This document shows positions 25,951-63,619 of a stretch of 64,000 bases of DNA, piece by piece (position 1 is the first letter of the stretch; each line of letters opens with the position of its first letter). The position numbers and the translations under genes are program-made. A model generated the notes under the pieces. The model saw only the letters and a list, made by a program, of their open reading frames with translations, ran no database searches and was not told where the DNA came from. Source of the stretch: Octopus vulgaris. Its lineage: Eukaryota. The stretch is taken from the NCBI GenBank assembly GCA_951406725.2, contig OX597820.1, positions 121,520,001 to 121,584,000 on the forward strand, given 5' to 3'.

Positions 25951-26075
25951 CACCTCAATGGAAACGAGACTTGATACTCATACAGACTTAACATTCTTGC
26001 AACACAACCATAATCTGTGAATAAAAGTTTAATTAGATAAAACCGCAGTGTCATCCGTTGAATAATATGTCGACA

Positions 26076-26490
26076 AGGCGGCGAGCTGGCAGAAACGTTA
26101 GCACGCCGGGCGAAATGCGTAGCCGTATTTCGTCTGCCGCTACGTTGTGAGTTCAAATTCCGCCGAGGTCGACTTTGCCTTTCATCCTTTCGGGGTCGAT
26201 AAATTAAGTACCAGTTACGCACTGGGGTCGATGTAATCGACTTAATTCGTTTGTCTGTCCTTGTTTGCCCCCTCTGTGTTTAGCCCCTTGTGGGCAGTAA
26301 AAAATAGGTATTTCGTCTGCCGCTACGTTCTGAGTTCAAATTCCGCCGACGTCGACTATGCCTTTCATCTTTTCGGGGTCGATAAATTAAGTACCAGTTA
26401 CGCACTGAGGTCGATGTAATCGACTTAATTCGTTTGTCTGTCCTTGTTTGTCCCCTCTGTGTTTAGCCCCTTGTGGGTAATAAAGAAACA
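26076..26490 (+). mobile_element. Meta-core SINE dimer (head plus two 183-bp units)
   Basis: Junction AAAATA|GGTATTTCG at 26307; TSD AATATGTCGACA at 26064-26075 and 26491-26502. Confidence 0.92.
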
Positions 26491-26759
26491 AATATGTCGA
26501 CATGCCTATAACATGAAAATATTAGAATCACTAAATTCTACAAGGATGTGCTTTATGCAGCCCAAAAAAGGGGATCTTCTAAACCTGTATAACTATGAAC
26601 TGTATTTGGCATCTGGATTGAATATTTTTGGAAAGAGATGATTCTTTTAAAAACCAGTTCGTCTAATTGGACCATAAAACCTGCAACAAACTAACTGTAC
26701 TCGAACTTATTCAAATACAGCGATGTTACAACCTGCTTTTATCATATTTTTCCAATCAG

Positions 26760-31607: not shown

Positions 31608-32491
31608 GGACCAGGGCCCATGGACAACTTCCAGAGATCCCTGGCCTGGCAGTGCTATCGAAAAGCGCTACCTGTTCGGGATAAGCTCTACAGACACGGC
31701 TCGAGAAACACTTTGCCGACCTGCCCGAGATGCGATCAGAGCGACGAAACCGCTCTGCACGCACTCGTGCAGTGTCCGACAATTTCCGATCTGTGGGCTT
31801 ATGTCGAACGACTGCTGTCACATGTGGGACGAGTCGGTTTATTAGCCGAGTCTATCGTCAATATCGTCACGCCTCCTTCCTTCAAACGGGAAGGAAGAGC
31901 TATTTTCATCATCCCTGTGGCTATGGCGAAAGAATGTATCTGGTGGACGCGTCTGAAAAGATTGGAGACAAACACTTTCCTCTCTGGTAAATCTCTCATC
32001 AACTTCTTCAAGTATCACTTGAAAAGGAAAGTGAGAGAAGAGAGGCAAGTTTTGTCTAGCGAATGTTTTAAAAAAAGATGGGTGAATGTAGCAAGGATGG
32101 CATGTATGAATGACGAAGCCACCTTGAGCATAATCCTATGAACCCGGAAAATTTAAAACATAGGGTTACCTACTTGCAAACAAATGTGGTAACATGTAAT
32201 AACATTGACCGAGGTTACCGTGGTCTTTTCCGTAGGCTTTTCTTCCCACGGATAAACCTTATCTGCTTCCCTTTTTACACTTTACATCATGACACTGTGA
32301 TACACGATCCCTATCGATCGTTTTGTTTTTCTTTTGTTTCTTTTCCTTTTTTTCTTTTATTTTCTTCTTTCCCTTTTACGATCCCTTTTGATCGAAAACC
32401 TGCCCCACCTTTTTTTTCTTTCCCAAAAAAAGAAAAGCTCTACTTTGTAATCTGTCCCGTCTGTGTGCAGCCATGTGTGGCTAATAAAAAA
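31608..32491 (+). mobile_element. 5'-truncated Tx1/L1-clade LINE: ORF2 C-terminus (zf-RVT/CCHC), 3' UTR, AATAAA and short A tail
   Basis: Open ORF 31620..32141 with LAWQCYRKALPVRDKL..CPRC..DETALHALVQC..LW; T-rich UTR; AATAAA at 32483; possible TSD ATATATC at 31601-31607 and 32492-32498. Confidence 0.85.
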
Positions 32492-32494
32492 ATA

Positions 32495-34500: not shown

Positions 34501-35475
34501 GTAGCAGCAGCAACAGCGGCCATTAAATGTAACTCCTGCACAATAACATAAATACAAACATAACCACTCTGCAGAACATCAGAGAGTTACAATTCTAGGA
34601 ATTGCCCACAACACTGCTGCAGCGTTCACCAGACTTGTATAAGGAACCAAACCGATGTCCGAACACAGAACAATCACAAGAACCACATTTGGCCAACAGA
34701 ATGAAATAACACCAACAACGATGTATAAAGAATGCAAATGTGGATTCTGTAAGTCTTTATAGAGTCCCTAATTTCGCCACAACACCCAACGATTAATTAC
34801 CGAAAGCTTAAAACCGCAGACTATGCAACACCACAGGGTGTATATAGACGATATAGACATAATACAGCTAACGTAATTAAAACGAGAAACCCCATGGGTA
34901 TTGCAACATCCAACCTCCCCTTTCGTTGTATTACTTGAAGAATCACCTCCAAAATAGATATTTGTTCAAGAGCAGAGAACGGCTACGATAACAACCTTAA
35001 AATTCTATCGTTTGCGTTTAGCCAGAACAGGAATGGGGATTATAAACTGGTAAGCACTGTGCAAGGACATATGCCAGAAACAAAGTTGAGAATAGCACCA
35101 ACTGTCGTGTTCTGAATAACCCTATCTTTGCCAGTTTTGAATCTATGACAAGAAGGAAGACATAAAACATCTCGCAGAGTATGCCCAGAACGTCATGAGA
35201 CAACCAATATGATTCATCGCCACATGTCAGATTGTGTGGAGAAGCGGAAATGTTGTATAACAGAGAAGGTAGATCTATAGGCTGGAACTGATCGATCACC
35301 TGACTACTTCACTGTGAAACGGTTGCTCAATAAAAGTTAAATTTCGGCTGCACAACAACAGTAACCCGAGTAAGCATTTAACAATCCCAATAACAAATGC
35401 AGGACAAGTGGGGACAGCCAACATGGCTGGTAATAGAGGCCGACTTGTGCAAACAGCTAACAGGCCCTGAATACC

Positions 35476-35673
35476 TATTTCTTTACTACCCACAAGGGGC
35501 TAAACATGGAAGGGACAAACAAGGACAGACAAACTGGTACTTATTTAATCGACCCCGAAAGGATGAAAGGCAAAGTGGACCTCGGCGAAATTTGAACTCA
35601 GTACGTAGCGGCAGGCGAAATACCGCGAAGCATTTCGCCCGGCGTGCTAACGATTCTGCCAGCTCCCCACCTT
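35476..35673 (-). mobile_element. Meta-core SINE, long-tail subfamily, internally deleted
   Basis: TSD AGGCCCTGAATACC (35462-35475) / AGGCCCTGAATGCC (35674-35687). Confidence 0.88.
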
Positions 35674-35914
35674 AGGCCCTGAATGCCGTTTCCTTGGTCT
35701 TCCTAATTCTGATCCCTGTCAACCTCCTCCCAAGTCATTTTCCAACTCATTTTCAGGCGTCATACCATATCCTTTATTTCTTACTACGGATTTTCAAATT
35801 ATTTTTCTTTATCTGTTTCTACAAGTTTTAGAAGATGAATCACTACATAAGTGCTTCTGGACGAGTATTATTTCTTCTTCTTCTTTGATGCGGTAAAAAG
35901 AAAAGGGAACATTT

Positions 35915-36149
35915 TGTTCTTGAGCAAGACACTTTATTTCATGTTGCTTCAGTCCATTCAGCTGGCAAAAATGAGTAGGACCCGTTTTTCAAGAGGCCAG
36001 CCTTGTCCCACCATGTCACGCTGACTCTCCCTGAGAACTACCTGGTGCGGATTCACGCGTCTGCGGTGTACTCAGTCACTTGCACGTTAATTTCACGTGA
36101 AAGCTATTCCATTGATCGGATCAACTGGATCCATCGTCGTCTTGACCAC
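35915..36149 (+). mobile_element. Headless tRNA-SINE fragment, same body and tail as 47372
   Basis: TTGAGCAAGACACTTTATTTCA...GGATCAACTGG..CGTCGTC. Confidence 0.8.
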
Positions 36150-36166
36150 TAAAACATCGTAATACC

Positions 36167-36397
36167 TATTTCTTTATTATTCACAAGGGGCTAAACATAG
36201 AGGGGACAAACAAGGACAGACATAGGTATTAAGTCGATTACATCGACCCCAGTGCGTAACTGGTACTTAATTTATCGACCCCGAAAGAATGAAAGGCAAA
36301 GTCGACCTCGGCGGAATTTGAACTCACAACGTAACGCAGACGAAATACCGCTAAGCATTTCGCCTGGCACGCTAACGTTTCTGCCAGCTCGCCGCCT
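36167..36397 (-). mobile_element. Meta-core SINE monomer, long tail
   Basis: Full head and tail; 17-bp TSD TAAAACATC(G/A)TAATACC at 36150-36166 and 36398-36414. Confidence 0.92.
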
Positions 36398-37855
36398 TAA
36401 AACATCATAATACCACCACCACCACCTTACCATTGTCACAGCCCCATATCCTTCCCACCAAATTATCCTTCACTCCCCCACACCACCATTAATCCTATTC
36501 TCACGAACTTACAATGGAGCTATCGCGCAATTGGTTGATTTGCGAGAAATAGCAAATGAATTCCCCTCAAATCGCATCTTATTATCTTAATAAGGGAAGA
36601 AGAATACATGTAGTCATGAATATCTGAAATATACCGACGGGAAAGCCATGGCTGGAACGCTTTCACCCATTTACCCCTTCTGACACCAACATTAGAACGG
36701 CCACTACCACGATCACTGCATTATAAACTATCACCACACTATTATGTCTGACATCATTACCACCTCAACCTGTATTAAACTGCTACTACTACTACTACAA
36801 CAACTACTACTACTACTACTACTACTACTATATTTAATAAGACTATCACCTCCACCATCACCGCTACTACCACCTCAACCGCGAAAACCACTGCCGTCAC
36901 TACCACCAAATTTCCAATACAACATTCCTATATTTAATACCTCCACCACCTCCATACTATCTCCTATACAACCGCCTTCCTCTCTGCACCCCATTCAGTT
37001 CCCCTACTACAGCCATTACACCCTCACTTATCAATTTACCTTCAATCCACCCCTTTGTCTCAATTATCTCCTTAATGCTCCCCACCCCCACACTTCCCCC
37101 ACCCCTTCTCAGTTTGTCCCTATTTCTCACTTCCTCCATACCCGACCAAACCGGCACATGCCTCTACTACCACCATCACCACTACCACCACCGCCACTCC
37201 TTCTCCCCCCCCCCCCCCGTCATTCCCCCCCGCTCCATAGACTCGGTGCTCGTCATTCCAATTAGCGAATAAATAAACACATATAGGGGAAACAGACTAA
37301 TTAACTGAAGGCGCGGGGGCTGGTTGATGGTAGCGGGGCGGTGTTGCAGTGTGATATGATGGGGGGGCGGAGTGGTGTATTGATGACCCGTCCACCCACC
37401 AACAGTGATGGAGAAGTTAGTGGCGGGAGATGGAATGGTGGCGGTAATAGCGAAAATAGCGACGGAGCAGTATTGGTTGTGGTAGCAGTGGTGATGATGA
37501 TGGGGATGATGTTAGTGGTGGTAATGATAGTGATGATGGTGATGGTGGAGATAGGGTGCTGGTGAGGGCGATGTGGTAGTGTGTTAATTCTGGGTTGTGG
37601 TGGTGGTGGAGGGTTGTAGTAATAGTGGTGCTGGAGTTGGGTGAGTGTTGGTGGTAGTGTGTTGTTAGTTGCGGTAAAAGTGAAGAAGTGGTTGTTCGTT
37701 TGCTTATGGTAGCGGCGATGGTGTTAGTGGTACTCTTAATGACAGTGATAATTGTAGTATAGGTGCTGGTGCTGGTCTCACCGCTGCGCTGTTAGTGGTG
37801 TGGAGTTAATTATGATAGTGATGGAGTGCCGAGTTGATAATAGCTGTTGAGGTGT

Positions 37856-37912
<57 letters not shown>

Positions 37913-38344
37913 GAAGAGGAGGAGGAGAAGAGGGGGAGGAAGAGCAGCAGCAGAAATAACGGTAATACTGTAGTAGTGGTGATGGTGGTGGTGGTGTGAT
38001 TTACAATAAAGCGCTTCTGATAATTCGTTGGTGATAGTGTGGCTATGGTACTGTGTTGTAATTGTGGATTGGTGGTTTCTTAAGTGGTGGTCAGGTGTAT
38101 TGAATGTGTTAATATTAATTGTAGATTTTCTTGTTGTCAGTAAAATGTGACAGGACACTACCCATAAATAAGCCTTAAATGGATTTTCCCAAGGTAGTGG
38201 GGAGTGTGCCTTCAAACCAAAAGCCTAGCGTCTGGTTCCATCGTAATCCCCCAAATATCCTTAAACCGAAGACCTGCCATCCATATAAAAAATCTCTCAT
38301 TGTTTGGATGGAGGTGTTGTATGGAATTAAATGGCTCTTCGAAA

Positions 38345-38545
38345 GGCAAAAGGCCAACAAATTTGTAGCAGAGTGGGGGTAAGTCGATTACATTGACCCC
38401 AGTACACGGCTGGTATTTATTTTATCGACCCTGAAATGATAAAAGGCAAACTGAACTCGGTAGAATTTGAACTCAGAACGTAATGACGGAAGAAATGCCG
38501 CTGAGAAGTTTTAGCAGTGCGGTTTCGATTCTGCCAACTCAACGC
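38345..38545 (-). mobile_element. Diverged Meta-core SINE (short-tail)
   Basis: Homology to other copies. Confidence 0.7.
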
Positions 38546-38616
38546 AAATGAAATCTGTAACTTCTACACAGCTTTGGGATAAAATGGTTTTAGTAAAATC
38601 CCCAATGATCTAGAAC

Positions 38617-38992
38617 TCCTTTATTCTTTTACTTGTTTCAGTCATTTGACTGCGGCCATGCTGGAGTACTGCCTTTAGGATTTATTATACCGACCCCATG
38701 ATTTATTCTTTGTAAGCCTAGTACTTATTCTATCGGTTTTTCTTTTGCCGAACCGCTGAGTTACGGGAACGTAAACAAACCAGCATCATTTGTCAAGCGA
38801 TGTTGGGGGGACAAACACAAGTACATACACACACACACTACACATACACAGACGACGGGCTTCTTTCAGTTTCCTTCTACCAAATCCACACACAAGGCTT
38901 TGGTCGGCCCAAGGTGCCACGCAGTGGGACTGAACCCGGAACTATGTGGTTGGGAAGCAAGCTACTTACGACATAACCAACCATGAGCCTAT
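38617..38992 (-). mobile_element. SINE of the 15752 family
   Basis: Reverse-complement match to 15752-16165. Confidence 0.85.
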
Positions 38993-39522
38993 AGCGGATG
39001 ATGATGATGATGATGATGGTAGTGGTGGTGCTGTGGTGGTGGTGGTTTGGGGAAGGTGTGAGGGAATGGTAAAGCAGGAATGTAAGACATTTTTGTCAAA
39101 ATGTACATATTCTCCCCCCCCTCTCGCGCAACCTCGGTATTCGTTACACTTCCTCACATTCTTCGTCACTAACCTGAATCCGCCCACAACAGGATCAAAC
39201 CAGTTGATCACCATCAACGATATCAGATTCTGGGTTTCAGTCCTTTCCCAGACAGCGAAGAAATATCAGTAGATTTCACAGGAAACCGAAAGAAATGAGC
39301 TCATTCCAATTGCTTAGCATCTTGGGACGATAAAACTGGGAGAAATTAGGTCGACGTCTGTCTTGTATCTGCAGTGCAGTGTTATGGAAAGCTGCGCGAA
39401 ATGCTGAGTTACGAACACTTTACTGGAAGGATCAGTTCAGTTTCATCACACAACAAAAACCTAAATCGACAACAAAAAAGTAAAAGAAACCTCAGCCGTC
39501 ACTTGCAAGCATGTATGATACC

Positions 39523-39693
39523 TATTTCTTTATTGCCCACAAGGGGCTAAACATAGAGGGGACAAACAAGGACAGACAAAGGGATTAAGCCGATTACATC
39601 GACCCAGTGCGTAACTGGTACTTAATTTATCGACCCCGAAAGGATGAAAGGCAATGTCGACCTCGGCGGAATTTGAACGTTTCTGCCAGCTCG
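39523..39693 (-). mobile_element. Meta-core SINE, long tail, head partly deleted
   Basis: TSD ATGATACC at 39515-39522 and 39694-39701. Confidence 0.85.
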
Positions 39694-39908
39694 ATGATAC
39701 CGTGGCGTGTACCATGCCTTTTCTAAGTTTCTTGAACTCACGTGAGCCGACATAGACTTCCTCTTTGCCATTCCATTGCAAACACACACGTGCACACATA
39801 TGGAAACTTCAGCAAGAGACATATAAATGTGACAAATTTGAGAAATTTTGTATTTTCAAGCAGTAAATGTAAGCAGATCAATCTTTCAGACTCCCAGTTT
39901 ATCGATGA

Positions 39909-55879: not shown

Positions 55880-56230
55880 TACTAATACATACACCAACTA
55901 ATACATACTAATACGTACTAATACATACTAATACATACTAATACATACACCAACCCTATACATACACACGTCCAGACCCCTCATACGCACTTATACTCTA
56001 CACACAGACACACACACACACTTATACATACTAATACGTACTAATACATACTAATACATACTAATACATACACCAACCCCATACATACGCACGTCCAGAC
56101 CTATCCTACGTACTAATACTCTCTCATACACACACACACACACACACACACCTAATACATACTAATACATACTAATACATACACCAACCCTATACATACA
56201 CACGTCCAGACCCCTCCTACGCACTAATAG
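55880..56230. repeat. Local tandem repeat (about 3 units) built on CTAATACATA subrepeats
   Basis: CACCAACCC..CACGTCCAGACC recurs three times. Confidence 0.8.
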
Positions 56231-63210: not shown

Positions 63211-63619
63211 TATTTCTTTTGCTGCCAACAAGGGGGCTAAACACAGAGGGGACAAACAAGGACAGACAAACGGATTAAGTCGATTACATCGACCCCAGTG
63301 CGAAACTGGTCCTTTATTTACCGAAAGGACGAAAGGCAAAGTCGACCTCGGTGGAATTTGAACTCAGAACGTAACGACAAACGAAATACCTATTCCTTTA
63401 CTACCCACAAGGGGCTAAACACAGAGAGGACAAACAAGGACAGGCAAAGGGATTAAGTCGATTACATCGACCCCAATGCGAAACTGGTCCTTTATTTATC
63501 GACCCCGAAAGGATGAAAGGCAAAGTCAACCTCGGTGGAATTTGAACTCAGAACGTAGCAGCAGACGAAATACCGCTAAGCATTTCGCCCGGCGCGCTAA
63601 CGTTTCTGCCAGCTCGCCA
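63211..63619 (-). mobile_element. Meta-core SINE dimer, long tail
   Basis: Internal junction (element strand) AAAGGAATA|GGTATTTCG near 63390. Confidence 0.88.

Follow-up and report, generated by a model that had tools for sequence, protein, structure and literature searches.

What leads a short interspersed element (SINE) to insert again and again in front of the letters with which its own repeated unit begins? The question is raised by a long-tailed SINE family in a 64,000-nucleotide stretch of microsatellite-rich, eukaryotic DNA (contig OX597820.1, forward-strand positions 121,520,001 to 121,584,000), here called the window, in whose coordinates all positions are given. The SINE is 232 nucleotides (nt) long and ends in AATAAAGAAATA at its 3′ end; its internal GGTAT, at position 50, is the point at which the units of multimeric copies restart. 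We conclude that the preference for GGTAT at insertion sites is a real feature, present in the window and in one external sequencing run, and that the SINE inserts preferentially just before GGTAT, with pairing between its read-through RNA and the cut DNA as the likely cause.

GGTAT at the insertion sites

A search of the window for the SINE tail returned 13 tails in seven insertions, together with one older tail at 32453-32494. Three of the insertions are monomers (35476-35673, 36167-36398 and 39523-39693) and four are multimers (12106-12886, 26075-26491, 52667-53085 and 63211-63618), each consisting of one head and then 183-bp units. An earlier reading made from the letters of the stretch (the sequence-only reading) had claimed that the target-site duplication (TSD) behind the tail begins with GGTAT at four insertions, and all four bear inspection: GGTAT stands at offset 0 behind the tail at 12887, 35475, 36166 and 39522, where the match to the next unit extends over 5, 6, 6 and 5 bases. 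At 12887, on the plus strand, the tail-side sequence GGTATATATATT is matched by an identical head-side copy (12094), and the full TSD reads AGGTATATATATTA at both 12093-12106 and 12886-12899. The other three insertions lie on the minus strand. At 35475, the tail-side copy GGTATTCAGGGCCT (35462-35475) and the head-side copy GGCATTCAGGGCCT (35674-35687, read from 35687) differ by one mismatch. At 36166, the 17-bp copies GGTATTACGATGTTTTA (36150-36166) and GGTATTATGATGTTTTA (36398-36414, read from 36414) both begin with GGTATT and differ by one CpG-type mismatch, the final A of the head-side copy being common to the head. At 39522, GGTATCAT occurs identically at 39515-39522 and 39694-39701 (read from 39701).

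Against a masked background of 78 GGTAT in 118,654 positions (6.6e-4), the probability of at least four such sites among seven is 6.5e-12; allowing for ten registers raises it to 6.4e-8. The choice of motif was fixed independently of the TSDs, because five of the six multimer junctions consist of the tail followed exactly by GGTATTTCG. The head-side copy carries GGTAT in three of the four GGTAT-class insertions and GGCAT in the fourth, indicating that the motif was already in the empty site. At the remaining three insertions (26491, 63211 and 52667) no base matches the next unit. The TSDs at 26491 and 63211 overlap the AATA or ATA of the tail, as the sequence-only reading had also noted, and the tail at 52667 is a slipped (AAAT)n run; overlap with the tail's (A)ATA is thus found in two of the three non-GGTAT SINE cases and also in the remnant of a long interspersed element (LINE) described below.

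One further claim concerned the mismatch at 35462/35674, with GGTATT on the tail side and GGCATT on the head side, which had been ascribed to a base templated by the RNA. The mismatch is there; as proof of RNA templating it fails, being a single informative case in a copy that is diverged at 14 of 198 letters, an age at which a mismatch in the 14-bp TSD is expected with P = 0.87. For the TSD of the 36167 copy the corresponding value is P = 0.81, and its mismatch is a CpG transition beside a base that does not match the RNA. Because mismatches are expected from copy age, the asymmetry was dropped as evidence. In target-primed reverse transcription (TPRT), the primer strand is target DNA, and an RNA-templated base in that strand would place the nick to its right.

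GGTAT in external sequencing runs

Four of the 24 listed runs were aligned to a 90-nt probe consisting of 75 nt of tail and 15 nt of the next unit. Run X5 is made up of DNA contigs, of which 85,392 aligned; it may be the source of the window, and its tallies are incomplete. Its loose ends are given for what we take to be the six best positions of the run. Among these, 267 contigs with unique flanks end right after the tail and 255 after tail plus GGTAT, so the enrichment proposed from the window is seen beyond it; any other position from +1 to +12 has at most 129 ends, and 129 and 299 contigs continue into the next unit. The flanks are long (median 233 nt after the tail and 255 nt after tail plus GGTAT) and mutually unlike (agreement 0.38 and 0.36). 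By the window background, a 5-base match is expected 4.4e-4 times as often as a 0-base match, and GGTAT in X5 exceeds chance by a factor of approximately 2,200, the step falling exactly at the fifth base. Five matching bases are at least 12-fold as efficient as four, and six at most 0.85-fold as efficient as five, a bound that rests on small background counts and rises to about 1.6 if plain base frequencies are used. Since ends of 11 letters with eight matches and three mismatches stayed unextended in the alignment, flanks of the TATAT type cannot fake the peak at +5, to which only a first-base mismatch (xGTAT) could add.

Runs X15-X20, with fewer than five words or a small share, count as no evidence, and the depth table of the run alignments, dominated by edge effects, was not used. 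Exact-pattern scans for more copies of the SINE gave 0 loci in metagenome contigs, genome contigs and viral contigs. When X24 was placed on 12629-12718, it contained reads with short satellites made of the SINE tail and the start of the next unit, with joints that jump back by 60 and 67 nt. Apart from these satellites, the SINE is scarce in X24, although that run shares its species label with runs that contain the SINE in full.

The SINE and its candidate partner LINE

The family has several traits of a tRNA-derived SINE: it is short, non-coding and interspersed, its seven insertions carry variable TSDs of about 7-17 bp, and its last 42 nt are shared with a LINE. A putative internal promoter consists of an A-box-like motif at position 10 and a B-box-like motif at position 76. 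Searches for a tRNA-like head returned 0 genes with ARAGORN and 0 matches in Rfam; the head of the SINE contains a long hairpin. Ten of the 13 units contain no TTTT run. Behind the tail, the first such run follows after 13 to 300 nt in six of the seven insertions and is absent within about 300 nt in the seventh. From intact units without such a run we infer that the RNA polymerase III transcript reads on into the TSD or the next unit.

Among the monomers, the minus-strand copy at 36167-36398 is a full 232-nt element with its internal GGTAT at 36349-36345. The copy at 35476-35673 has a 36-nt internal deletion, which takes out the region of the arm described below; that at 39523-39693 is 5′-truncated and has lost position 50 to an internal deletion with GTT repeats at its ends. 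Both deletions are bounded by short direct repeats and are compatible with template slips during copying. In three full-length copies, the 5′ junction overlaps by one base, the final A of the TSD being the first A of the head (12093-12106, 36398-36414 and 26064-26075). Older sister copies of the SINE lie at 939, 1613, 15403, 20422, 27708, 38505, 43871, 51965, 52195, 52650 and 59613. They have the same head and body, a shorter and different tail, and more divergence than the long-tail SINE; multimers joined at position 50 number 0 among ten copies listed. Their different tail suggests a tail swap to another partner LINE.

The candidate partner family is represented by a 5′-truncated LINE remnant of the L1/Tx1 type at 31608-32494 on the plus strand, which comprises the zf-RVT end of open reading frame (ORF) 2, up to 32141, and the 3′ untranslated region. 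An alignment of its final 42 nt with the SINE tail has 79% identity (score 44 vs 32 for the best of 300 shuffles). The remnant lies between two (TATC)n arrays, has a TSD of approximately ATATATC that overlaps its own tail, and, in this one copy, has no GGTAT behind it. The end of its ORF matches zf-RVT with E 5.5e-8, the only one of 31 scanned frames with this domain. APE endonuclease, reverse transcriptase and zf-RVT occur together in two of eight scanned long relatives, as in ORF2 of the L1/Tx1 group. The nearest named relatives of the LINE protein are from Argonauta hians, suggesting that the host of the window is likely an octopod. One Argonauta relative, P0170, is 58% identical over 128 amino acids; its best match among solved structures is L1 ORF2p (E 2e-53 vs 4e-24 for R2). 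One of the scanned relatives carries a ZCCHC3-type RNA-binding domain, a possible hint at the Tx1 clade. A scan with a LINE relative gave 0 loci in viral contigs. The SINE probably borrows an L1/Tx1-type LINE enzyme. In O. vulgaris, 13 L1-Tx1 families are recently active, and SINEs make up 11.6% of the genome (PMC13282606).

Multimers and a probable self-insertion

Does the SINE also serve as its own target? The sequence-only reading had suggested that a GGTAT preference would drive self-insertion. The largest array is the plus-strand tetramer at 12106-12886, a head with four 183-bp units and three exact junctions. The plus-strand dimer at 26075-26491 has the TSD AATATGTCGACA at 26064-26075 and 26491-26502, and the minus-strand dimer at 63211-63618 has a TSD of approximately ATATATA. 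All four multimers keep the head, and their units restart at position 50. Within the tetramer, within the 26075 dimer and within the 63618 dimer, the units have private letters in common, from which it follows that each of these arrays came from one source or was duplicated in place. A tree of the 13 units had 0 starred branches, and for this reason only shared letters and distances were used.

The minus-strand dimer at 52667-53085 is of another kind. From the head to position 61 it is diverged at 9 of 61 letters, in the first body at 9 of 172 and in the second unit at 26 of 180, an old-young-old contrast (Fisher P 0.025 and 0.004); no excess of divergence in the head is seen in the five remaining headed copies (13/300 vs 41/822, P 0.75). 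A private A at position 51 is common to both sides of the junction, where the tail is followed by TATATTTTG. This dimer is likely a young copy that inserted into an old one at position 50-51, the two being joined by homology. The age mosaic is a single case and was noticed after the fact. Around it, AATCGCAAA occurs three times in 52480-53100 on the minus strand, namely before the dimer, between the dimer and the older 52650 copy, and after the 52650 copy, a pattern suggestive of successive insertions at one site.

An internal arm complementary to tail and target

The youngest subfamily carries an internal arm that is complementary to its own tail and target. In the 36167 copy it lies at 36218-36231 on the minus strand and is complementary at 13 of 14 positions to tail plus GGTATT(A) at 36160-36173. 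A motif search found the reverse complement of tail plus GGTAT at positions 170-181 of the tetramer units (T1-T4) and of the copy whose head begins at 36398; the arm-bearing copies are among the least diverged in the window. Two diagnostic changes of the subfamily fall in the arm, and both are derived and improve the pairing. In the predicted fold, 11 of 12 arm positions have pair probabilities of 0.88-1.0, GGUAU pairs with the arm at 0.94 or more, and GGTAT ranks second of 1024 five-mers in stabilising the 3′ domain of arm-bearing copies. At two diagnostic sites, the arm accounts for about half of the X5 depth, a share that is biased upward by the probe stretch. Selection on RNA structure or palindrome correction in DNA may have produced the arm; in either case the arm places GGTAT behind the tail of the source copies, in cis. 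As a speculation on the modelled fold, the stem might set the trimmed RNA end at GGUAU(U).

Discussion

How could a sequence outside the SINE body come to guide its insertion? On balance, we favour a LINE nick combined with five base pairs to a run-on GGUAU that is renewed in each TSD, with position 50 acting as a built-in target. An L1/Tx1-type LINE enzyme would nick the target with a preference for a short sequence, possibly TAT beginning two bases inside the site, and copying would start most readily if the five terminal bases of the cut strand are paired with GGUAU. SINE RNA that continues past its tail into the TSD or the next unit, as predicted above, could offer two registers for pairing, one through AAUA in the tail and one through the GGUAU that follows it directly, and could thereby yield the two TSD classes; GGTAT stands behind about half of the insertion ends. 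Every daughter of the GGTAT class would again have GGTAT behind its tail, so that the five letters would renew themselves. With position 50 of the SINE as target, insertion into an older copy would give a seamless dimer of head, unit and unit, as supported in one case, and such dimers could later lengthen by slippage or unequal exchange. Published work reports that human L1 ORF2p can extend primers of 5 nt and has contacts with the primer as far as n+5 (PMC10830420), that in L1 priming the four paired bases at the very end matter most (PMC3649969), and that SART1Bm and R1Bm start accurately with the help of target-like RNA that follows the 3′ end (PMC7265360).

Several observations weigh against this reading. 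The pairing itself is inferred from DNA, and a sharp five-base step without gain at the sixth base fits an endonuclease motif equally well. The TAT preference comes from three or four sites in an AT-microsatellite-rich genome. Insertion of an unrelated copy cannot account for the tetramer or for the 26075 and 63618 dimers, and the junction of the one probable self-insertion reads TATAT rather than GGTAT. The fold-back stem is not family-wide, since GGTAT drops to ranks 360 and 29 of 1024 in two copies that have the older arm; palindrome correction at the DNA level could have produced the stem, which would also compete with the primer. Among the runs, X7, which is RNA by guess, has +5 outside its best six positions (at most 21 ends) vs 28 ends at +0, and X23 and X24, with 2 and 145 aligned of 12.9 million reads each, are uninformative on frequency. 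The X5 counts are of partly tallied contigs, and the organism code of that run differs from most SINE-bearing runs.

The sequence-only reading had offered an RNA extending into the next unit or an endonuclease preference for GGTAT. These were the right candidates, and they are not alternatives to each other, because a copy that sits before GGTAT makes read-through RNA carrying GGUAU. That the endonuclease of the partner LINE alone recognises GGTAT and nicks before it, with the RNA match as a by-product and self-insertion at position 50 as a consequence, is possible, if on the unlikely side. It would account for the motif on the head side in three of four insertions and for a step at five bases with no gain at six, and Tx1-clade elements are often target-specific through their endonuclease, the crocodilian SINEU inheriting the target of Tx1-Mar (PMC4494074). 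However, about half of the ends lack GGTAT (267 vs 255 in X5; 3/7 in the window) and mostly overlap the tail, the sole LINE copy sits in (TATC)n, and the probable self-insertion site reads (G/T)ATAT; copying would moreover have to begin precisely where the tail ends, on a transcript that has no terminator at that point. It seems improbable that long multimeric RNAs were the main templates, any tail pairing with the GGUAUUUCG of the next unit and multimers arising by template jumps within one RNA or to a sister RNA. With four of seven insertions multimeric, five of six junctions exact, private letters common within arrays, contigs running into the next unit (129+299 in X5, 38 and 85 at the best six positions in X7), and template-jump concatemers made by L1 ORF2p in vitro (PMC10830420), such jumps may explain some arrays. 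Yet rising use of six-, seven- and nine-base matches would be predicted, against the bound on the six-base class in X5 (at most 0.85 of the five-base efficiency), and the age mosaic of the 53085 dimer is impossible from a single template. The multimeric template proposed earlier is thus not required: the signal steps at five bases with little or no gain at the sixth, and monomers with a GGTAT TSD of their own would supply the same five bases.

A circular template, the other form of extended RNA suggested by the sequence-only reading, fares worse. Rolling-circle reverse transcription, as known from retrozymes, of a 183-nt circle that spans position 50 to the tail would give exact junctions, and the junction is an inverted repeat, GAAATA-GG-TATTTC, with position 50 adjoining a hairpin loop. 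All four multimers nevertheless start with the head, which the circle would lack, and no Rfam ribozyme was found over the tetramer at E up to 10; the marks of retrozymes, a self-cleaving ribozyme at the junction and arrays without a unique head, are thus missing here, and we regard a circle as very improbable. The junction hairpin was considered as a ligation site and rejected, as its pair probability does not exceed 0.16. Chance or an alignment artefact is hardly credible: the window sample is small and the genome-wide signal comes from one external run, yet the probability in the window is minute and the aligner could not have pulled TATAT-type flanks to +5.

The favoured combination of nick and pairing can be extended to a conjecture that we consider unlikely in full. 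GGUAU would be a heritable five-base RNA guide outside the SINE body, captured at the first insertion into position 50 and renewed in every TSD, which would redirect a borrowed L1/Tx1-type enzyme from the LINE's own (TATC)n-type target to GGTAT sites, those inside the SINE among them; in the youngest subfamily, the arm that pairs with the guide would set the RNA 3′ end.

Each ingredient is known already; the self-referential combination is unusual. Ohshima and Okada reportedly described, in 1994, the tRNA-derived SINEs OK, OR1 and OR2 of octopus (cited in PMC4824008 and PMC4758252); by description, they likely share host group and element type with the present SINE. The SINEU/Tx1-Mar pair of crocodilians resembles our case in mobilisation by a Tx1-type LINE, a target preference, insertion into another repeat and tandem copies; in contrast to SINEU, with its Mariner target and a TSD between tandem copies (PMC4494074), the five-mer here is the internal site of the SINE itself, and the junctions are seamless and head-less. 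In L1 snap-velcro priming (PMC3649969), in L1 ORF2p with its 5-nt primers (PMC10830420) and in SART1Bm/R1Bm (PMC7265360), a few RNA bases behind the copied end likewise make target choice more precise by pairing with the nicked strand. Those systems use poly(A) or the fixed target of the LINE, whereas here a non-A five-mer would pair in a SINE mobilised in trans, and the sole LINE copy seen sits in a different target from the SINE. SINE units in arrays are also known as squamate SINE-derived satellites (PMC10702118). Multimers of the form TSD1-(SINE)n-TSD1 in the clam S. broughtonii share the headed first unit, later units head-truncated at one position and the single TSD pair; unlike here, their inner units are also tail-truncated, which was ascribed to unequal recombination, and the accessible part of that paper makes no link to target choice or self-insertion (PMC11481361). 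A term search of the supplement of the O. vulgaris paper (PMC13282606) found neither 'GGTAT' nor 'target site'. Our literature search, which covered mainly open literature and not Repbase, found no description of the GGTAT motif or of this SINE-LINE pair, and no published SINE whose own internal site is its preferred target in phase with the multimer junction, an earlier description being possible.

In L1 and Alu, endonuclease preference and RNA-primer pairing are hard to separate because both signals are A/T runs. A non-A five-mer at many natural insertions, together with a partner LINE that can be counted, makes this question of target choice in TPRT directly testable from an assembly. Self-targeting would also explain why many copies of the long-tail SINE are multimers of one head plus units. 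If five RNA bases do redirect a LINE enzyme in trans, this would bear on retrotransposon-based insertion tools.

Other features of the window

An RVT_1 fragment of another LINE remnant lies at 4896-5273 on the minus strand (E 1.1e-7). Two tandem arrays are present: a 147-bp repeat of GGT/AGT-rich sequence at 49798-50549, with about five copies and 94% matches, and a 123-bp repeat at 55901-56229, with 2.8 copies, which contains CATACTAATA decamers.

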